64,000 nt of DNA, taken from assembly GCA_945861145.1 (NCBI GenBank), contig CAMATL010000004.1, positions 8,264-72,263 on the forward strand, in the 5' to 3' direction. The stretch is from a candidate division TM6 bacterium GW2011_GWF2_37_49 (GTDB lineage: Bacteria; Babelota; Babeliae; Babelales; RVW-14). The notes under the pieces are model-generated. The model was not told the DNA's origin. It ran no database searches and saw nothing but the letters and a program-made list of their open reading frames with translations. Both the position numbers and the translations under genes were made by a program. Below are positions 8,870 through 60,302 of the stretch, piece by piece. Numbering within the stretch: position 1 is the stretch's first letter; the number at the start of each line of letters is the position of its first letter.

Positions 8870-10936
8870 CTACTGTTGCTTCTTGCCTACTATCTCTTCC
8901 TGAATGCTTTTTGGTACTTCTCGATAGACTTCAAATTGCATCGAGTAACTCGCACGCCCTTTTGTCAAAGAACGAAGCGCGGTTGAATACCCAAACATCT
9001 CTCCGAGTGGCACTTCCGCAGTAATAACCTGTGAACCTTGCGCCGCATCCATTCCCAAAATTCTTCCACGACGTGAATTCAAATCGCCCATTACGTCGCC
9101 CATATTTTCATCTGGCGAAACGGCTTCGACTTTCATGATCGGCTCAAGAAGTACTGGAGAACCCTTAGCCAAACCATCCTTAAACGCCATAGAAGCTGCT
9201 ATTTTAAACGCTAATTCAGAAGAGTCAACATCATGAAACGATCCATCAAACACGCTTGCTTTGATGTCAACTACTGGATACGCGCTCAGAACGCCCTGAC
9301 CGAGGGCTTCTCTGATACCTTTTTCAATGCCTGGAATAAATTCTTTAGGAATTGTTCCACCTTTGATATCATTCACAAATTCAAAGCCAGTTGCTCGCTC
9401 TTTTGGCTCTAAACGCAACCAAACGTGGCCATATTGACCATGTCCACCTGATTGGCGAATAAACTTACCTTCCACCTCAATTGAGCGCTGGATGGTTTCT
9501 TTGTAAGCAACTTGGGCTTTACCCACGGTACTTTCAATTTTATACTCACGCAGCAAACGATCAACAATAATTTCTAGATGTAATTCACCCATGCCTGAAA
9601 TTATTGTTTGATTTGTTTCTTCGTTGTAACTAAATCTGAATGATGGGTCTTCTTGCATTAGCTTACGCAATCCGGCAACCATCTTTTCATTGTCGCCCTT
9701 ACCCTTAGGCTCAATAGCCATACTGATAACAGGATCTGGACAATTAATACGCTCAAGCAACAAAGGAAAGCCTTCTGCTGTTAAGGTATCGCCGGTAATA
9801 ACATCTTTTACACCAACAACAGCTGCAATATCGCCAGCTGTAATAACCTTAACTTCATCTCGCTTGTTTGCATGCATACGCATAAGACGGCTAACGCGCT
9901 CTTTTTTGCCTTTAGCAACGTTATACACATACGAACCAGCTTCAAGCTTGCCAGAATACACCCGAACAAAGGTCAACGACCCTACAAATGGATCGACCAT
10001 GATTTTAAAAGCTAATGCACAAAATGGCTCTGCATCATCAACTGATCTTGTTTCTGCCTGTTCGGTCTCTGGGTTGATACCTGTAACAGCATCAATATCA
10101 AGAGGTGACGGCAGATAATCAAGCACAGCATCAAGCAAAAGCTGTACGCCTTTATTTTTGAATGCAGCACCGCAAAATACAGGGGTAACCTTTTGATCAA
10201 GCACACCCTTACGCATTGCAGCTTTAATTTCTTCTACGGTAATTGGCTGAGCTTCAAGATACTTTTCAGCAAGTACTTCGTCAAAATCACCCGCACGCTC
10301 TACGATTTTTTCGTATAATTCATTGGTCTGCGCTACATATTCAGCTGGAATATCTTGCCAAGTAACAACACCCTCTGCATCAGAGATCGCCATTCTTTTT
10401 GTCAAAATATCAATAATCGCTGAAAAATCTTCTGATTTTCCGATTGGAATTTGCATTGCCAATGAGTTACCACGAAGCTTTTCAGATATTTGGCTTACAA
10501 CATTAAAGTAGTCGCCACCAACACGATCAAGCTTGTTAATAAACGCAATGCGCGGAACTTTGTAACGAGTAGCCTGGCGCCAAACCGTTTCCGATTGAGG
10601 CTGAACACCACCAACAGCACAAAATACCGCAACAGCTCCGTCAAGAACGCGCAATGAACGCTCAACTTCAATAGTAAAATCAACGTGACCCGGAGTATCA
10701 ATCAAATTAATTTGATGATCTCTCCAGAAACAGGTAGTCGCCGCTGAGGTGATTGTAATACCACGCTCACGCTCTTGCTCCATCCAGTCCATGGTCGCTT
10801 CACCAGCATGTACCTCACCAATTTTGTGAGAAACACCGGTATAAAACAAAATTCGCTCACTAACCGTGGTTTTACCCGCGTCAATGTGCGCCATGATCCC
10901 TATATTTCTATATTTCGCTAATTTAGGATTAATCAT
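8870..10936 (-). CDS. fusA: elongation factor G
   Basis: 688 aa, [17 protein letters not shown]; sits between rpsG and tuf. Confidence 0.98.
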
Positions 10937-16683: not shown

Positions 16684-16861
16684 CATCGAAATATTTTGTC
16701 TTTTTTAGCAGTATTACCGAATTATTACTTCGATTCTACTTATTTCAGTCGATCCCCAGATCTGAGCTTCATTGCTTCCGGGCGCGCGCTCACCTTGCAA
16801 GTTTCGGTCAGTTTACGCGAATCCTCAGCATTATCAACTGCAGCAGACAAATCTTTAATAT

Positions 16862-17323
16862 TTAGTCTTGCTTGACGATCTCGGCCTCGACAGGATTCGA
16901 TGACTTTTTTTTTGAGCCAATAGAACCTGCTAACGCAGCTCCTTTTTCCCAACCAGCAACAGCTAAATTCTTTGCACGAGGAGCGCCATAATAAACAGCT
17001 GCTACCACTGCAAGTGTTAATGCTATTTGGCCTATGGTAATAGAACCAATAGCACTACCAGCAAATGCATTACCGTTATTTGTTATAAAAGCTTGAATTG
17101 CAGACCAATCCTTAGCTGAAATATTTTTATCAGCTCCAACAGCTGCCAAAATTTCATCTCTTGAAATGCCTTGTGCTTCAAGTTCTTGAATGACCGCTGA
17201 AATTGATTGCGCCACAACAAATTCTTGGCTATTTGTCATTGGTCCTACAACCTCACTAGCGGAAAGCGCCATCCCGAAGGATAAAACAGCCGCAGAAACA
17301 AACATCATTAATTTTTTCGCCAT
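16862..17323 (-). CDS. hypothetical exported protein with C-terminal hydrophobic segment
   Basis: Start at MAKKLMMFVSAAVLSFGMALSA (signal peptide). Hydrophobic IGQIALTLAVVAAVYYG lies near the C-terminus. No family recognised. Confidence 0.6.
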   Translation of the reverse strand: MAKKLMMFVSAAVLSFGMALSASEVVGPMTNSQEFVVAQSISAVIQELEAQGISRDEILAAVGADKNISAKDWSAIQAFITNNGNAFAGSAIGSITIGQIALTLAVVAAVYYGAPRAKNLAVAGWEKGAALAGSIGSKKKSSNPVEAEIVKQD

Positions 17324-17445: not shown

Positions 17446-18720
17446 TTACTTGTTTATCAAATTTTCTAGTTCTTGAGCTTTTTTAGGCAATACAGCGCTC
17501 AAACAAGTAACTCCTGATGCCGTCACTAAATAATCATCTTCTATACGAACCCCTATCGATTCATCGCGCAAATAAAGTCCTGGCTCTATGGTAAACACGT
17601 CGCCAGGTTGCAAAGGCTCGAGATACGTACCAACATCATGCACATCCAAACCCATGTAATGACCAAGACCATGAGGAAAAAATTTCTCTAAACCCTGGGT
17701 TTTAAAAAATTCAGTCACAAGCCAATGTAGCGACTGCTCCTTTACGACAGCGTTACGTAAAAACATTCCTGGCTTGGCGATATTAGCAGCGTACTGCTGT
17801 GCAGCCAGCACCCAATCATAAATTTCACGCTGTCTCGGCGAATATTTACCACTCACAGGATAGGTCCGCGTTAAATCGGCTGCATAGTAGCCATACTCGG
17901 CACCAATATCAACAACCACCAAATCATCTTTCTCTAAAACACGGTTATTTTCAACATAATGCAGCACGGTGGTTTTAACGCCACCACCAACAATTGATGG
18001 AAACGCTGGCAACAAAGCACCCTGACGCACAAATTCTGCTTCAATCTCAGCTTGCAGCTCACATTCTTTTAAACCAGGGCGCAGCACGTTGGCCGCCACA
18101 TGATGTGCCGCAATGGTGATATCAATTGCCTGACGGATAAGCACAATCTCCTGCTCGCTTTTAACCCGCCGCAGCGCATCAACGATAGCAGTCCCGTTAT
18201 AAAATACCCCACCATCCAGACAAGCTTGCTGTAAAAATTGCATGAGGTTACAAATCACTACCTCACCAGCAGTTTCACCCCAAACCCCACCAACAACGCC
18301 TTTTTTATCAAAAATTTTTTTAATATCATTAATCAGTTGCTGATAGCCTCCAGCGGTAAATACCGTTCCGCTTGAATACCCACGCTGCACTTCGCCCATA
18401 GGCTTGATGACTGCTAAACCAAACGAAGAAGGGTCACTGCTCAATGATACCTGCTCATCAACCCACACACTCCGCGCACCACCAAAATCAGGCAGATACA
18501 AAGTTGCATGCCCATCAAGCGAAATTAGCCCAACAGCGCCTGGCTCTGTGATACCAAAGAGATAATAAAAATAACTATTTTGCCTAAACCGCCGCCGCTC
18601 TTCTTCAAACGCAGCACAGACTACAATCGCACCAAGCTCCTGCTGCTGATTGGCTTTACCCACTGCAACGGCTAGTTTTTGTCGCCGCTGTGAAAAAACA
18701 TCTATATCAAACGTAGTCAT
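17446..18720 (-). CDS. pepP: Xaa-Pro aminopeptidase (M24B family)
   Basis: 424 aa, HGLGHYMGLDVHD and the C-terminal EPGLY...IRIED pattern of M24 peptidases. Confidence 0.88.
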   Translation of the reverse strand: MTTFDIDVFSQRRQKLAVAVGKANQQQELGAIVVCAAFEEERRRFRQNSYFYYLFGITEPGAVGLISLDGHATLYLPDFGGARSVWVDEQVSLSSDPSSFGLAVIKPMGEVQRGYSSGTVFTAGGYQQLINDIKKIFDKKGVVGGVWGETAGEVVICNLMQFLQQACLDGGVFYNGTAIVDALRRVKSEQEIVLIRQAIDITIAAHHVAANVLRPGLKECELQAEIEAEFVRQGALLPAFPSIVGGGVKTTVLHYVENNRVLEKDDLVVVDIGAEYGYYAADLTRTYPVSGKYSPRQREIYDWVLAAQQYAANIAKPGMFLRNAVVKEQSLHWLVTEFFKTQGLEKFFPHGLGHYMGLDVHDVGTYLEPLQPGDVFTIEPGLYLRDESIGVRIEDDYLVTASGVTCLSAVLPKKAQELENLINK

Positions 18721-18794: not shown

Positions 18795-18889
18795 GGATCC
18801 CGGCTCGCAGGCCGGGATGACAATGTAGAAGGTCATTTCTCTCCTGTCATCCCGGCCTGCCAGCCGGGATCCACCAAAATCCTGTTTCC
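18795..18889. repeat. palindromic element, full copy (28 bp terminal inverted repeats)
   Basis: ggatcccggctcgcaggccgggatgaca (18795-18822) versus the reverse complement of 18845-18872 matches at 27/28. The right flank accaaaatcctgtttcc is also conserved at 38538-38555 (inverted). Confidence 0.85.
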
Positions 18890-18974
18890 CAATCGTAAAA
18901 AGTATATTGCTCAACAGTGTAAAAGATCTCTGAATCGACGCCTAGACTTTAAAAATCTTTAGCAACATAAGCAC

Positions 18975-19037: not shown

Positions 19038-20066
19038 TTAGGAATTAAGCGCTTTGAACGCTCTTGCAAGTCTGTGACGGTTTTCAGCTAAGTAAGTCGC
19101 AACCTTGGTTGAATCATTACCGAAGTATGAGTTCAACGAAGCCAAGAGTGTTTGAAGATCTGCATCACTGAATAAGTCAAACACGTCAACTGTTTGTAGT
19201 GAGTCAGTCACGGCAGTATTTACACTAAAGCCAGCAAGGTTATCGCTGTTAATTGTGTAAGAAACTACGCCAGGATTCCAAATAGGATGTGTGGTGTTGA
19301 CGGTGTTATTATTCCAATTTGATTCATAGAAACCTTTATTATTTGTACCACCAGTTGTCAAGTAACCTACTGTGGTGGTGTAATTAGCCCATGGAACAAA
19401 TCCAATTGAAACGTTATTGGTAATTGCTTCCTTGCGCACAGTTAGTGTCAAACGGAAATCATTATTTTCTGTAACGGCTGGACCATTAAACACTCTACAA
19501 GTTGTGGATTGTTTAAAATCCTTTTTACTAACACCATTGACGCCCATGATTTGACCAGGTGTCATTTGTGGGTGGCTATAGATATCTTGTGATCGCAGAG
19601 CAACAGTCGCCATACCATTATTGACAATACCAAGCCTGTAGCTTGTTGCTGTTGTTACGAAGTCAACATCAAGCCATGCGCCACGAGCTGCTGCTGTTTT
19701 GTCTTTAAAACGAAGCTCAAGCTGTTGGTTAACAGGATTAAGTGCTTGTTGGCCCATGATGAATTTCTGGCCAGGTAGTCCGATTTTACCAATAGTTATA
19801 TCACCATTGATACGAGCAGCACCATACACGGTCAAATTACGACCTGTAGCAGCTGAACCAATTACTACATCATCAGTAATCGCTTGTGCTCTTGTAGCAT
19901 CATCATCAACTTCTTCCTCAATAGCTTGTTGTACCAATGCTTCGATGACTGCAGCAGATACTTTAGAATCTTTACGTGCAGTTGCAGCATTCGCTACTGA
20001 GAAAACCAGTGCCGCTGCCAAACTCAATGAACCAAGACGCGCTAATAAAGAATTGAGATTCTTCAT
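19038..20066 (-). CDS. hypothetical secreted protein (candidate abundant surface protein)
   Basis: 342 aa, signal peptide MKNLNSLLARLGSLSLAAALVFSVANA. N/T/G-rich body, strong terminator and a 314 bp AT-rich upstream region. No family recognised. Confidence 0.7.
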   Translation of the reverse strand: MKNLNSLLARLGSLSLAAALVFSVANAATARKDSKVSAAVIEALVQQAIEEEVDDDATRAQAITDDVVIGSAATGRNLTVYGAARINGDITIGKIGLPGQKFIMGQQALNPVNQQLELRFKDKTAAARGAWLDVDFVTTATSYRLGIVNNGMATVALRSQDIYSHPQMTPGQIMGVNGVSKKDFKQSTTCRVFNGPAVTENNDFRLTLTVRKEAITNNVSIGFVPWANYTTTVGYLTTGGTNNKGFYESNWNNNTVNTTHPIWNPGVVSYTINSDNLAGFSVNTAVTDSLQTVDVFDLFSDADLQTLLASLNSYFGNDSTKVATYLAENRHRLARAFKALNS

Positions 20067-38390: not shown

Positions 38391-38537
38391 AGTATTAGCT
38401 CCAAAGATTAAAAACGACTGAGATACCACACGAACAAGCTAAAAAAAAGAACCAATTGAGCGCAAGATTTGAAGAAGTCTTACGTGCAATTGGTTTTTGA
38501 GCGAGAGCAGTGCGTTGGAAGTATACTCTTCACGGTT

Positions 38538-38582
38538 GGAAAACAGGATTTTGGTGGATCGCGGCTCGGAGGCCGGGATGAC
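38538..38582. repeat. solo arm of the palindromic element family
   Basis: ggaaaacaggattttggtggatcgcggctcggaggccgggatgac is the inverted equivalent of 18845-18889. No partner arm follows. Confidence 0.75.
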
Positions 38583-38809
38583 CTACTAGTAAGTCGTTAT
38601 TAAAAAGTACAGGCGGCTTTATTCCTGCCAATCGCTCTGGGGTAAGAATGGGAATGTTTTTTGAGAGTAGTATTTGCTGTCTTTCACAAATCAAACCGTG
38701 TGTTTATAGGCAGGTCCTGTCATGATAATTATGAAAAATTTCTTTTATCGCCCATGGGGAGCGAATAACTGTTTTGGCATGCTAGCAGGTCCTTTGTAGA
38801 TAATTTGTT

Positions 38810-39766: not shown

Positions 39767-40579
39767 ATGACAGGTAAGCGTGGATTTTTTTTTAAACGTG
39801 GACTTTTATTTGCGTTAGTATTTGGTTTTGCCTGCAGCATGGGGGACAAAAATAAAACTAATACTACAAACGAGCCGGGGTTTGCCAATCTCGCTGAAGG
39901 AGAGGGTAGCTTTCGAGCTCTTGTTTATGATGATAATAATCAATACACGCTGAAAGATTTTTCATTTTTTGGGCATACCACCGTTGGGGGTGTGCGGCGT
40001 GAAACTGATGATTCAATGACTCGTTTTGAGCTTTCAAAAATCAAAGAGCTTAAGGTTTTAAAGCCTCATTTTGATAGTAAGCGCTTTGGAGATAAAGAGT
40101 TTTTGCTTGCAGAGGTGACGGCGAGTACAGGAGCGGTGACATCTGATCTATTAGTTCCAAAGAAATTAGTAATTTGTGGAATTGATGAAAAATCTGGGTT
40201 AGAAAAATCTTGGTTTTTGCAAAAAATTGATCGTATTGTCATGCAGGGAGCAACACCTTTGGTGCTGCCCAGCATACCCTCAGTCTTGACTAATCCAAAA
40301 GCTGTTACCGCAACAACAGCTCCAACCGCACCAGCACCTTTGACGCCGGCAAGGGCAATACCGACACCTGACTCACAAGGAAAAACTAAGCATACCTTCA
40401 GGCCTGCAAAACCAAATAAATGGGACGCTTTTTATCAAAACAATCAGATGCCAAAGGGTGACACTCAAAAAGTGACGCCACCTGAAAAACGTTCTATCGG
40501 TGGAACGTTTGTGGCGATAGTCGATGCGATTATTGATTTTCTTCGCGCTATAATTAATGGTGTGTTTAAATTATTTTAA
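39767..40579 (+). CDS. hypothetical lipoprotein
   Basis: 270 aa, lipobox VFGFAC, P/T/A-rich linker, amphipathic C-terminus. Confidence 0.6.
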   Translation: MTGKRGFFFKRGLLFALVFGFACSMGDKNKTNTTNEPGFANLAEGEGSFRALVYDDNNQYTLKDFSFFGHTTVGGVRRETDDSMTRFELSKIKELKVLKPHFDSKRFGDKEFLLAEVTASTGAVTSDLLVPKKLVICGIDEKSGLEKSWFLQKIDRIVMQGATPLVLPSIPSVLTNPKAVTATTAPTAPAPLTPARAIPTPDSQGKTKHTFRPAKPNKWDAFYQNNQMPKGDTQKVTPPEKRSIGGTFVAIVDAIIDFLRAIINGVFKLF

Positions 40580-40671: not shown

Positions 40672-40826
40672 GGCGCGATTCGCGTCCGTATCTCTCGATA
40701 CATTTCGCTATGCACAGAAGTGCTGCGCGAAACACTCGAGACGAACTGGCAGGAGAGCCACACAATCCGTTCGCTTCGAGTGTTTTGCTCGTAGAGTAAA
40801 ATGTATCGAGAAGTGCGAACTGGATA
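40672..40826. repeat. long imperfect palindrome (about 150 nt, nested arms)
   Basis: Inner arms 40727-40746 and 40769-40788 pair at 18/20 positions. Outer arms tctcgatacattt (40693-40705) and aaatgtatcgaga (40799-40811) are perfect. Confidence 0.8.
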
Positions 40827-40854: not shown

Positions 40855-41823
40855 TTATTGTTTGCGGCAATAAATGCCCGAAAGTATTGGCGTAATTGGT
40901 ATTATTTTGAAGATGGTCAGTCCAGCTTGCGTGATTAATGTATTAAATTGCGCAAGAGTACGTTCTTTGACGCCAAAGATGCTAAGTAAGAGCAAATCGA
41001 TTGCTGCAAGCATGCTTGGCTCTTCTGCCTTATCCAAGACTCCTTCGATAATTACCAGCTCTTATTCAGGGCCCATAGTTGCGACTACTTGATGTAAAAT
41101 CGCAAGAGCTTGTTCGTCGGTCCAATCGTGTAAGATTCTTTTAAGGATTAGCGTTTCGGCATTAATATTGAGCGGCTCAAAAAAGCTTCCACCAATGCAT
41201 TCTAGTTTTGGGGTCTCTTGAACTAACTCAACTACATTTGGCAAATCAAACAAAATTGCGGTTGATACTGCTGCTTGATTAGTGAGAATCTTTCTCAGTA
41301 GTTGTCCATTGCCGCCGGCAATATCAGCAATTTTACCATTAAAAATTAGCTGCTGTGCGATTGCCGCGTCTTCATTGCTGGATATGCTATTCATCGCTTT
41401 ATCAAACCGCTCACTGAGCACCGGATTTTTTTTGAGAGAAGTAAAATAATCATGTCCATACAACATATCAAAGGCTGGCTTGCCTGTTTTGATTCAGTAG
41501 CTGAGGTTACCAAAGCTGTTCCAGCGCGTTTCATCATCATGGACTAAAAATGGCTTTATGCTCGCTCCATGGTGCTCAAGCAAGTGATATGAATCTGTAG
41601 GTAAAGAATACGTACCATCTTGTTCACGCGTGAAAATATTTTTGAGACACAAAAAATAGAGTAATCGAGCTAAAGTCGCTGCATCTGCGCCCGTAAGCGT
41701 AGCTAATGCAGCAAGGCTTTGCGGCCCATGCTCCAAGTGTTCGGCTAAATTAAATTCAGCTGCTGTGAATAATGCTCGCGATAAAACAATGGTTTCAAGT
41801 AGGTCAAATTGATTAATACTCAT
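40855..41823 (-). pseudogene. class I O-methyltransferase (family 2, COMT/ASMT-like) inactivated by two in-frame stop codons
   Basis: Track ORFs 41494-41823, 41062-41466 and 40855-41037 share one frame. They encode the dimerisation, SAM-binding (DIAGGNGQLL) and C-terminal parts. They are separated only by a TGA at 41494-41496 and a TAA at 41062-41064. Confidence 0.8.
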
Positions 41824-45247: not shown

Positions 45248-46759
45248 TCATGGTGAGTGTTTTTCGCTATGCGAAAAATGTATCGATCCATACAATTTTT
45301 CATTGAGTCCAAACCAACGGTCAAAGATGACTGCTGCTGCGGATCGGACTGATAAATGGTTGTATGAGGTCATACCATTTACCGGTAAAAGTAGGTAATC
45401 GCATCGTTCAATAATGGATGAAGAAAGGCCATGCGCTGTACCAAAAATAAAGAGTACTGGGCGGTTGTGAGCCCACACCGTTCCTTGACTGTGGTAGTCA
45501 ATTTGCGGAGTTTGAAGTTGTTGCTTTCTCGCGCAGGTGGCTATCATAAGTGGTGCTGCATTTTCGATTTGTGTGATTTTTTCAATAACTTCGTCGATTG
45601 ATGATGCAGTTTGTACGCTATGCATCGCTTGGTAGCGATTTTTATTGTATTCCTTTCCGTCGTGCGATTTCCAGAAATCAAGGAAGGTATTGACCAGTTG
45701 GGCTTGATCCTCAAGCTTGGTTACCAAGAAATACCCCTTGAGGCCAAAGGTTGCGCTTGAACGAGCGATGTCATGAATATCAAGCGAGGCAACTGAACTT
45801 GTGCCGACGGCGCCGCCTTTTAAAACAATTTCGCTATGCATGAGTACGACATAGTGATTAGGGATTATTTTTTGAGCAAGTTTAAGCTCTGCAGGCGTCG
45901 GGTTATGTTCTCTAAACCAATCAAAACGCTTGAGTAGCGTGTTTTTGCATGCTTCTTCGCGTCGCCAGTTGGCTATTGCTAGGTGATTGCCTGACTTAAC
46001 AATGTCGGGCACTGTCTGTTCCCGCCAGGTGATAGTTTGCCCGTACTGCGGGTGATCAAGCAGGGCGCCGCTAAATGATTCATGGTCGACTGATTCTTGG
46101 CTGCCAACTATTCCTGGAATGAGGCGTAAAAAAGCTTCAAGAAATACCTGCGCTGGTAGATCACCACCCATGAGCACGTAGTCACCGATAGAAATTATTT
46201 CGTCAGCAAAGGTTGCTTCTGCACGAGCATCGATGCCTTCGTAGCGTGTTGATACGATGATAAGGTGTGGTTGCTCGGAAGAGGAAGAAGTACTGGATCT
46301 CGGATCGGCGTCCGGGATGACAGAATTTGCAATTGGATGTAGTTGGGTATTATTGAGGGTGTCTTCCTCTAATTCCTTGTCATCCCGGACATTGATCCGG
46401 GATCCATCCTTGACTTGATCGGGAGATATGAGCGGAGTACCCGCAAAAATTTTTGCTTTAAGATTGTGTAAAAGTGGCTGATCGAGGCGTTTACCTTGCG
46501 GCGTGAAAAAAATATTAAACCCTTTGCCCCAGCGTTGCTCAGCTTGTGCGATTCCAGCTTCGATGAGTGCTGGTTTAATAATCATGCCACTGCCTGGGCC
46601 TGCTGTAGCCTCGTCAATGCGTTCTTTGAGTGGGCAGAGCTGCGAAAATTTAATGAGCTGTACCTCTATTAAACGTTGATCAACAGCCCGTTTAACGAGA
46701 CTTGTATTTAAGAAAGGCTCAAAAATTTCTGGAAAAACGGTGATAATTGATATTTTCAT
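45248..46759 (-). CDS. trmD: tRNA (guanine37-N1)-methyltransferase TrmD fused to a C-terminal SPOUT-like domain, carrying an in-frame palindromic-element insertion
   Basis: 503 aa. N-terminal MKISIITVFPEIFEPFL...TRYEGIDARAE...SIGDYVLMGGDLPAQVF is TrmD. The C-terminal 200 aa, ending YNHLSVRSAAAVIFDRW, resembles the TM1570/PF09936-type predicted RNA methyltransferase. Confidence 0.88.
   Translation of the reverse strand: MKISIITVFPEIFEPFLNTSLVKRAVDQRLIEVQLIKFSQLCPLKERIDEATAGPGSGMIIKPALIEAGIAQAEQRWGKGFNIFFTPQGKRLDQPLLHNLKAKIFAGTPLISPDQVKDGSRINVRDDKELEEDTLNNTQLHPIANSVIPDADPRSSTSSSSEQPHLIIVSTRYEGIDARAEATFADEIISIGDYVLMGGDLPAQVFLEAFLRLIPGIVGSQESVDHESFSGALLDHPQYGQTITWREQTVPDIVKSGNHLAIANWRREEACKNTLLKRFDWFREHNPTPAELKLAQKIIPNHYVVLMHSEIVLKGGAVGTSSVASLDIHDIARSSATFGLKGYFLVTKLEDQAQLVNTFLDFWKSHDGKEYNKNRYQAMHSVQTASSIDEVIEKITQIENAAPLMIATCARKQQLQTPQIDYHSQGTVWAHNRPVLFIFGTAHGLSSSIIERCDYLLLPVNGMTSYNHLSVRSAAAVIFDRWFGLNEKLYGSIHFSHSEKHSP
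46295..46405. repeat. 111 bp palindromic element inside the trmD reading frame
   Basis: Arms ggatctcggatcggcgtccgggatgaca (46295-46322) and tgtcatcccggacattgatccgggatcc (46378-46405), same family as 18795-18872. Length is 37 codons, translated as GSRINVRDDKELEEDTLNNTQLHPIANSVIPDADPRS. Confidence 0.85.
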
Positions 46760-46833
46760 TGTGTGTGTCTTAAAAAGAAAAAGCAGGGCGCATGCGCCCT
46801 GCTACTAAATTTTTATGCTTCTCAACGTGCTGG

Positions 46834-48969: not shown

Positions 48970-49197
48970 TCACCAAATTTCTTTGGGCGCGAAGCAGAAA
49001 AGCTTATTTGCGTATAAAAACGACTCTAGTTTACACCGAGTGTTAAAAATCGCATTAAAAAAATAAGGGTTGTATTTTGAAGCATACACGGATTCGCCGT
49101 TGTTATGAGCATCTAATCGTTGATTAACATTTTGAGAATAACCAACATAGGTTTTTTTGGGGTAATTGATTGATCGTAAGATGTATACATAGAACAT
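48970..49197 (-). CDS. small GIY-YIG (URI) nuclease-family protein, possibly degenerate at the C-terminus
   Basis: MFYVYILRSINYPKKTYVGYSQNVNQRLDAHNNGESVYASKY matches the GIY-YIG core. After a T7 run the sequence no longer resembles the family. The track ORF's first 10 codons cover a hairpin after tRNA-Phe. Confidence 0.6.
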   Translation of the reverse strand: MFYVYILRSINYPKKTYVGYSQNVNQRLDAHNNGESVYASKYNPYFFNAIFNTRCKLESFLYANKLFCFAPKEIW

Positions 49198-49259
49198 AGA
49201 AAAAAGTCCTTCAGGATGGCCTGCCATCCGTAGCTACAAGCGTAGCGAAGAGCGAAGGA

Positions 49260-49335
49260 TGGTGCCGGGAGACGGAGTTGAACCGACGACACAAAGATTT
49301 TCAGTCTTCTGCTCTACCACCTGAGCTATCCCGGC
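49260..49335 (-). tRNA. tRNA-Phe (anticodon GAA), CCA encoded
   Basis: The reverse complement reads gccgggatagctcaggtggtagagcagaagactGAAaatctttgtgtcgtcggttcaactccgtctcccggcacca, a standard cloverleaf. Confidence 0.95.
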
Positions 49336-60232: not shown

Positions 60233-60233
60233 T

Positions 60234-60298
60234 CTTGTCTACAGGGATAAAAGCAGCCTCGACGCGCGATCCAGACTTCTTTTATCCCTGTAGACAAG
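60234..60298. repeat. perfect 20 bp inverted repeat with 25 nt GC-rich loop
   Basis: cttgtctacagggataaaag (60234-60253) and cttttatccctgtagacaag (60279-60298), 4 nt after the stop of the 60303-61157 gene. Confidence 0.9.
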
Positions 60299-60302
60299 AA
60301 GA

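Follow-up and report, generated by a model that had tools for sequence, protein, structure and literature searches.

Short palindromic repeats that lie inside protein genes are best known from Rickettsia, and related coding palindromes are reported in Wolbachia. The Rickettsia palindromic elements (RPE; Ogata et al. 2000 Science, 2002 Genome Res) are summarised in PMC10969869. Chenal et al. (2025) describe the 28-nt Neisseria Transformation Sequence (NTS) CGTCATTCCCGCGMAVGCGGGAATCYRG, which contains the dRS3 repeat, and define a wider class of 'Ssn-related motifs' (SRM) (PMC11893778). Here, we analyse a stretch of 64,000 nucleotides (the window) from a candidate division TM6 bacterium, GW2011_GWF2_37_49 (GenBank assembly GCA_945861145.1, contig CAMATL010000004.1, positions 8,264 to 72,263), whose tRNA methyltransferase gene trmD carries a 111-bp palindromic segment. 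We think it likely that this segment is a non-autonomous doublet of SRM hairpins with a 55-bp core, which inserted into a hypervariable loop of TrmD in Dependentiae (TM6/Babeliales) and is translated and tolerated there. Our search for literature on palindromic repeats in Dependentiae found nothing relevant.

The SRM hairpins have a characterized partner enzyme. Small single-domain GIY-YIG proteins (Ssn, cd10448) bind the hairpins only when the DNA is single-stranded, cutting it a few bases upstream; SRMs lie near 71% of ssn genes, and an insertion-sequence-like behaviour is suggested for NTS-ssn-NTS units (PMC11893778). In Neisseria, the NTS repeats around genes modulate the integration of transforming DNA, and the genomes listed as richest in SRMs include those of Rickettsia and Wolbachia (PMC11893778). 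The repeats of that study are placed around genes, and the words in-frame, intragenic and intergenic are not used in it (PMC11893778).

The palindrome in the trmD reading frame

The element in trmD is composed of two inverted SRM hairpins whose GTCAT heads face inward, with the core between them (Table 1). An inverted-repeat search places the arms at 46294-46322 and 46378-46406; they are 29 nt long, 86% complementary and 55 nt apart. In the coding orientation, the plus-strand hairpin of Table 1 is the 5′ arm and gives the peptide GSRINVRDD, and the minus-strand hairpin is the 3′ arm and gives VIPDADPRS. The whole element corresponds to residues 119-155 of the trmD product and is translated as GSRINVRDDKELEEDTLNNTQLHPIANSVIPDADPRS. 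Its sense strand folds into one long hairpin with a calculated RNA energy of -52.3 kcal/mol (z = -6.9; 0 of 200 shuffles as good), and the element folded as DNA gives -27.5 kcal/mol (z = -5.5). The arms, the fold and the arm-pattern match described below bear out the palindrome that an earlier sequence-only reading had placed inside this open reading frame (ORF). Its length of 111 bp, or 37 codons, is correct for the interval, but the net insertion relative to the empty allele of a close relative is 108 nt (36 codons).

Table 1. Coordinates of the element, its host gene and related features in the window
Feature	Coordinates	Strand	Basis
trmD fused to Tm1570-type SPOUT domain, 503 aa	45248..46759	-	ORF, Pfam, NCBIfam, PDB 8B1N
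In-frame palindromic element, 111 bp	46295..46405	-	Inverted repeat, translation, absent in L001, decayed in L002
SRM hairpin TGTCATCCCGGACATTGATCCGGGATCCAT	46378..46407	+	Exact SRM motif match; 8-bp stem
SRM hairpin TGTCATCCCGGACGCCGATCCGAGATCCAG	46293..46322	-	Exact SRM motif match; 1 stem mismatch
55-bp element core	46323..46377	-	Homologous to L002 core by alignment
Intergenic doublet, trmD-element architecture, arms 97% complementary, 22-bp core	18795..18872	.	Fold z = -11.3
Solo intergenic arm	38556..38583	.	Arm pattern match
Small GIY-YIG ORF, C-terminal half decayed	48970..49227	-	PF01541 profile positions 1-41 of 78 only; 2.2 kb from trmD

The arms belong to a repeat family. With up to three mismatches, the arm pattern GGATCCCGG-N8-CCGGGATGACA finds five arms in the window and 0.00 in 100 shuffles. 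The search for further copies with this pattern thus yields, within the 64 kb, one intergenic doublet (two arms), one solo arm and the coding copy in trmD (two arms). The shared pattern also upholds the proposal that the trmD element and the intergenic doublet, which lies between the ORFs 17446..18720 and 19038..20066, are of the same family. Beyond the arm, about 45 further bases (ACCAAAATCCTGTTTYCCAAYCGTRAARAGTATAYT) are common to 18845-18920 and 38520-38583 (reverse complement); thus, the hairpin at these intergenic sites is one end of a longer repeat unit.

We compared the arms with the degenerate SRM motif HGTCWYN(0-2)YYVSBRHN(0-5)WNVSBRGN(0-2)RNCYNB. Both trmD arms match it exactly, which makes two matches in the window, where 100 dinucleotide shuffles give 0.04 on average. 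The arms of the intergenic doublet are one position short of the strict motif and share its head, stem and tail. A GTCAT head followed by a 7-8 bp stem is present in all five arms of the window. By the published sequence criterion, the trmD arms count as members of the SRM class.

The hairpin is not confined to this window. The exact arm pattern occurs in at least 120 loci (the count exceeds that number) of species-representative genomes, where about one is expected by chance, and among the matches listed its hosts include Coxiellaceae, Dehalococcoidia, several Patescibacteria, Limnohabitans, Alphaproteobacteria and Cloacimonadota. Of the eight free bases, the two outermost are complementary in 96% of 132 listed copies (C-G 61, G-C 39, A-T 24), against an expected 43%. 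The SRM hairpin is a structure kept by selection over a wide host range. Inward-facing doublets with a core of 26-56 nt, the architecture of the trmD element, amount to 135 distinct copies in 120 listed loci. As candidates for further coding copies, we considered SRM doublets inside long ORFs of other phyla and rejected them: 32 of the 135 lie in stop-free frames, mostly in genomes of high GC content, in which chance produces such frames.

Other arrangements of the hairpin are also observed. In the relative L002, at 16854-17041, two ankyrin-repeat genes have between them an SRM pair with heads outward, its members about 130 nt apart; thus, the hairpins occur in several architectures in this clade. 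In eight other loci (L004, L012, L024, L026, L080, L091, L094 and L207), many SRM copies are followed by tandem GGGATGACA heads about 12-14 nt apart. These tandem heads lack the remaining hairpin, and in L207 and L024 they run through long frames as peptide repeats (…DPGTVIPDPGTVIP…).

A variable loop of TrmD

The host gene is the only long ORF of its region and stands in the usual gene order, ffh, rpsP, KH protein, trmD and rplS. Its product contains the TrmD domain (PF01746, residues 160-278) followed by PF09936 (residues 302-483). The gene that the sequence-only reading called trmD encodes a TrmD-Tm1570 fusion and not a plain TrmD. Both domains are present in 120 of the 120 best homologues, most of which are 440-470 aa long, and Dependentiae/Babeliales normally have the fused form. 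Among solved structures, the doubly knotted TrmD-Tm1570 fusion of Calditerrivibrio nitroreducens (PDB 8B1N; PMC11187310) is the best match, both by sequence (2.4e-70) and by fold (2.2e-36, Foldseek), and the Tm1570 domain superposes on 3DCM with a TM-score of 0.92. The window protein agrees with 8B1N in its fold and in its arrangement of two domains. A difference appears at the insertion point: 8B1N aligns to residues 3-96 and 167-481 of the window protein and has about 10 residues across the gap, whereas the window protein has 70 between the aligned blocks.

To describe this region, we used an AlphaFold2 model of the host protein built from a 20-sequence alignment, which has a mean predicted local distance difference test (pLDDT) of 73.5. 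Residues 109-160 have a pLDDT below 50 and are flanked by a confident helix (94-104) and a confident strand (165-170, HLIIVS), the latter leading into TRYEGID. The element lies, as the sequence-only reading had it, in a loop just before the HLIIVSTRYEGID strand, and the model predicts this loop to be disordered. The sequence-only reading had estimated an insertion of roughly 60 residues. From end to end (residues 98-164), the variable loop of the window protein has 67 aa, against a median of 26 aa (range 14-95 aa) in the 120 homologues and about 10 in 8B1N.

We take this loop to join two of the three segments from which the TrmD trefoil knot and the S-adenosylmethionine pocket are formed. The insert would then lengthen a loop of the knotted core and would not break a structural element, and it is presumably tolerated since the loop carries no structural or catalytic role.

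The same loop has received hairpins in other lineages, and the long loops of homologues carry peptides typical of translated hairpin repeats. First, the loop of L336 (P0050, about 54% aa identity) contains an intact solo hairpin of SRM type, TGTCATCCTGAAATTGATTCAGGATCCAG, in another frame (peptide CHPEIDSGS), and the loop of L337 (P0085, about 54% aa identity) contains this hairpin type in the opposite orientation, TGGATCCTGAATCACGTTCAGGATGACAAG. The stems of both are AT-rich, with CCTGAA/TTCAGG and not CCCGGA/TCCGGG; the stem is changed on both sides and the head and tail are unchanged. Second, the loop of L125 (P0005, 1225-1300) holds a different 60-nt hairpin (…CGCTCGTCCTGAGGAGTCGCACCTGCGACATCTCGAAGGACAAGAGCG…, z = -4.0), of which a decayed relative is found in the loop of L126 (P0018, 5325-5440). 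A second, unrelated hairpin family (GTCCTGAG…CTCGAAGGAC type) is present in the TrmD loop of several Dependentiae lineages; second-family loops also occur in P0017, P0024, P0040, P0056, P0057, P0064, P0083 and P0116, and their peptides include VRPEPVEG, FNKLRPNG, HPE…SKG and EPSPRLRPTG. At least three independent hairpin insertions, from two families, have occurred in this one TrmD loop. The clustering may reflect a target preference or mere survival where insertions are harmless.

Insertion, decay and alternative explanations

We compared the locus with its relatives at the DNA level. In the closest relative (L001; P0002, a Logan contig), the trmD DNA is 93.2% identical, the neighbouring genes are alike and exactly 108 nt are absent at the site of the element. 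The empty site reads GATCAA TGTCAGGAATCC AGC, and the window reads GATCAA GTCAAGGAT, then 111 nt, then AGT. The next relative (L002; P0003, a JGI contig) is 86.7% identical and has 84 extra nt, in frame, at the same site. In this copy (10340-10450), the core is recognizable (…CTCAATAATACCCAGCTAGATGCAATTACAAATTCTGTCAT…), one arm is mostly gone and the other is mutated; its folding potential is gone (z = 0.11) and its reading frame is kept. An outgroup (L338; P0013), with a protein 82% identical outside the loop, holds TGCCATTCCGGGCGCCGATCCGGGAGAC in its loop DNA, a decayed arm that is identical to the window 3′ arm at 22 of 28 positions, hairpin loop bases included. More distant relatives, among them P0004 and P0006-P0012, have short loops without the element. 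The empty allele in L001 and the decayed in-frame copy in L002, both found by the ortholog alignment, establish that the segment was inserted, as had been supposed, and is not protein sequence of long standing in this lineage.

In the simplest history, the element inserted once before these lineages split, then decayed in two of them and was lost cleanly from L001. The insertion probably predates the split from L002 and perhaps also that from P0013, and separate insertions or strain-to-strain exchange are possible alternatives to a single event. Where exactly the insertion begins and ends is uncertain to within a few bases, because the flanks (…AAGGAT/GGATCC… and …GAGATCC/AGT) and the empty site (AGGAATCCAG) both resemble the element ends.

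Codon-level comparison of the window with L002 separates the gene from its insert. In the first 100 codons, the first, second and third codon positions differ at 5, 3 and 34 sites (32 synonymous and 9 non-synonymous codons), and the 320 codons after the loop show 11, 6 and 90 differences (81 synonymous, 17 non-synonymous). The 90 nt of the insert that both share, the core and the adjoining arm at 76% identity, show 8, 4 and 10 differences, with 6 synonymous and 12 non-synonymous codons. The gene is under purifying selection and the insert is nearly neutral, its constraint being relaxed. The net insert of 108 nt, the loss of 24 nt in L002 and the loss of 108 nt in L001 are all multiples of three, since selection on an essential gene removes frame-breaking copies.

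Several points weigh against a translated and tolerated mobile doublet. First, the alignment of the window with the empty site of L001 displays no clear target-site duplication at the junction. Second, the 55-bp core has 0 matches elsewhere in genome contigs and 0 in metagenome contigs, the latter a weak negative because the metagenome set lacks even the L002 contig; only the arms are repeated, and thus mobility of the whole unit is not demonstrated. Third, no nuclease of the SRM-flanked (Ssn) clade is found in the 64-kb window, where the best match to that clade, the decayed ORF at 48973-49233, has E = 0.003. Fourth, the window arms have at most one stem mismatch each, whereas the apparently homologous copies of L002 and P0013 are heavily mutated; if all go back to one insertion and have simply decayed neutrally, better-kept arms in the window would not be expected, and these may result from gene conversion from other copies, selection or chance. 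Finally, the presence of the insert in the protein is something that we infer; the enzyme with the insert presumably stays active.

The better-kept arms lead to two readings in which the doublet is maintained. A broad one, which we regard as rather unlikely, holds that SRM/NTS hairpins colonize coding sequence and, in Dependentiae, repeatedly target, or survive in, one loop of the TrmD knotted core, with the window doublet perhaps maintained by gene conversion or selection as a nuclease-addressable site or an mRNA pause element. The narrower one is that the hairpin was co-opted and has been kept intact, either as an Ssn-type cleavage site that limits recombination or transformation across trmD or as an mRNA structure that slows ribosomes before the knot strand. 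Co-option agrees with intact arms beside decayed copies, with the high stability of the mRNA hairpin and with the effect of Neisseria NTS repeats on incoming DNA (PMC11893778), but L001 keeps an intact gene without the element, the codon changes of the insert are mostly non-synonymous and no Ssn gene was found nearby in the window. Its argument from preservation concerns 56 bases in one lineage, and we consider it unlikely.

Beside a tolerated surface loop, the sequence-only reading set removal of the insert as the other option. Removal would come before the mature enzyme is formed, either through protein splicing or through excision from the RNA at the hairpin in the manner of an intron. An Rfam search of 45900-46800 at E ≤ 1 gives no match, introns included, so no known intron or ribozyme is present. 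The 37 residues contain no domain and are far below intein size, and L002 keeps a derivative in frame that no longer folds. Although the strong RNA hairpin brings the ends of the element together, and its length is an exact multiple of three, an in-frame length is expected anyway from selection on an essential gene. The unfolded in-frame copy, the lack of an Rfam match and the size argument favour 'translated and tolerated' over 'removed', which appears very unlikely; of the two options, our results support the first and not the second. Inside trmD, no terminator-like site was found, and the single promoter-like match is at chance level.

It is just as improbable that this copy of trmD is inactive or a pseudogene and that the essential function is supplied elsewhere. 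The inspected DNA is 64 kb of the genome, and the NCBIfam TrmD equivalogs score just below their cut-offs (201.3 against 220) because the insert splits the match into two stretches. However, the ORF is full length and its residues agree with every invariant column of the 120-sequence family alignment, substitutions relative to L001 and L002 are overwhelmingly synonymous and the ribosomal-protein operon context is conserved. A second intact trmD, which would have made this copy suspect, was not found in the 64-kb window.

The least probable explanation, an ordinary lineage-specific loop that happens to be palindromic or an assembly artefact, draws on the hypervariability of this loop in the family but fails on the empty-site allele of L001, on arms that match a repeat family at two other window sites and more than 120 loci elsewhere, and on the exact 503-aa protein. 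Three contigs, assembled independently and drawn from two or more samples, encode this protein, which speaks against an assembly error.

Nucleases, movement and comparison with known systems

For an SRM doublet that inserted into trmD and is translated and tolerated, the most likely route of movement, by analogy with the NTS-ssn-NTS units, would be an Ssn-type nuclease. In this scheme, the element would spread selfishly: a GIY-YIG nuclease of Ssn type would act on the hairpins when they are extruded in single-stranded DNA, and repair of the cut or recombination with another copy would follow. In essential genes, only in-frame, stop-free insertions in tolerant loops would survive. The insert would be transcribed and translated with the gene, adding about 36 residues of disordered loop, and would later drift, as in L002 and P0013, or be deleted, as in L001.

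Such nucleases accompany this hairpin elsewhere. A profile search finds 19 small GIY-YIG ORFs of a different clade from the window ORF (consensus YFVYILASKKNGTLYVGVTSDLVRRVEEHKEGLVSGFTKKYKVKRLVYFEEFEDVEEAIAREKRLKRWRRKWKLELIEKENP) among about 240 SRM-bearing loci. Most of the 19 have a GGGATGACA hairpin no more than about 100 nt away, and often there is one on each side. Among the loci L003-L255, small GIY-YIG genes of one clade with GTCATCCCGG-type hairpins or doublets to their left and right are seen, for instance, in L040 (2108-2796), L245 (4346-4896), L160 (3403-3870) and L149 (146-606), and the hosts of such genes are Cloacimonadota, Alphaproteobacteria, Rickettsiales, Coxiellaceae and a Leptospira interrogans contig. 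The NTS-ssn-NTS layout is independently reproduced for this hairpin subtype (cf. PMC11893778).

The small GIY-YIG ORF of the window was considered as the nuclease of the element and rejected, since its family is not SRM-associated and its C-terminal half is unlike that of the SRM-flanked clade. It scores 90 bits with its own family and 14 bits with the SRM-flanked clade. No SRM lies near the five loci with relatives of this protein, and 80 further loci of the family, from many phyla and reached with a profile of 10 GIY-YIG sequences, contain 4 SRM matches in 2 loci against about 1.9 expected by chance. The window ORF has lost nearly invariant residues of the family, and its C-terminal half has diverged. 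The gene is intact in L002 (7298-7570) and reduced to 28 codons in L001 (658-741); this GIY-YIG gene next to ffh is decaying in the clade.

A separate association concerns tRNA genes. In the window, tRNA-Phe (49260-49335) ends 33 nt before the GIY-YIG ORF on the same strand. Members of this family (about 80 aa) follow same-strand tRNA or tmRNA genes: in 80 loci (L256-L335), a tRNA or tmRNA ends within 600 nt upstream of 67 of 86 genes, mostly at 85-250 nt, and 13 kinds are represented (tmRNA 14, Gln 14, Ala 9, Arg 7 and others). The same arrangement is seen at L002 7190-7570 and in L129, L135, L127 and L132. The family looks like a mini-element or a co-transcribed nuclease tied to tRNA genes.

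Two further inverted repeats lie in the window. One is a nested intergenic palindrome of another family at 40684-40820 (about 137 bp), between the ORFs 39767..40579 and 40874..41092, with outer arms of 22 nt (82% complementary) and inner arms of 20 nt (85%). The other, at 60233-60299, is a 30-nt inverted repeat with 90% complementarity and a 7-nt loop.

TrmD is a drug target and serves as a model for knotted proteins. The comparison of homologues reveals that one of its loops accepts 10 to 95 residues in nature, and this permissive loop is of use to engineering and to work on how knots fold. A single case of this kind will not surprise specialists in bacterial repeats, and the function that we claim for the insert is tolerance only.

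Among known repeat systems, we first compared the element with REP-type repeats and transposable elements of the miniature inverted-repeat type (MITEs). REP sequences are marked by a GTAG head, which the trmD hairpin lacks. Like REPINs and bacterial interspersed mosaic elements (BIMEs), which are mobilized by RAYT proteins, and like MITEs such as Correia, ERIC and QMITE (PMC5896051, PMC10969869), the trmD doublet pairs two inverted hairpin repeats across a short spacer into one long hairpin, and the unit is non-coding by origin and non-autonomous. Compared with a classical MITE, it has the terminal inverted repeats and no unambiguous target-site duplication.

The hairpins themselves are closest to the SRM/NTS class. 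The trmD arms share with CGTCATTCCCGCGMAVGCGGGAATCYRG the oriented GTCAT head, the GC-rich stem, the free loop and the ATCC tail, and in other phyla hairpins of the trmD subtype are found beside small GIY-YIG genes. They differ from the published repeats in position, since those lie around genes and the trmD pair lies inside a coding sequence, and in company, the window having yielded no Ssn-clade gene. Coding palindromes are thereby tied to a hairpin family with a biochemically characterized partner nuclease, and through this link the movement of coding palindromes, a puzzle of long standing, may become testable.

Finally, in behaviour the trmD element is a counterpart of the RPE, as the sequence-only reading had suggested: both are short and palindromic (about 100-150 bp in RPE, 111 bp here), and both have intergenic copies as well as in-frame copies within genes of an obligate intracellular bacterium, the genes being unrelated and often essential ones in the case of RPE. 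An RPE insert is read through as an extra peptide where the fold allows (PMC10969869), and the trmD insert occupies a region of low pLDDT, a site compatible with the fold. The two differ in that the trmD host belongs to Dependentiae, another phylum, and in that the 64 kb yields one coding copy, whereas RPE are marked by a high frequency. The trmD arms are hairpins of SRM/NTS type around a core that is not repeated. To call this family unrelated to RPE in sequence, as the sequence-only reading did, may go too far, because Rickettsia and Wolbachia genomes are among those richest in SRMs (PMC11893778). The kind of event is already known, and the coding location of an SRM motif and the host phylum appear to be new. 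Selfish DNA inside protein genes is thus extended to a third obligate intracellular group, the Dependentiae.

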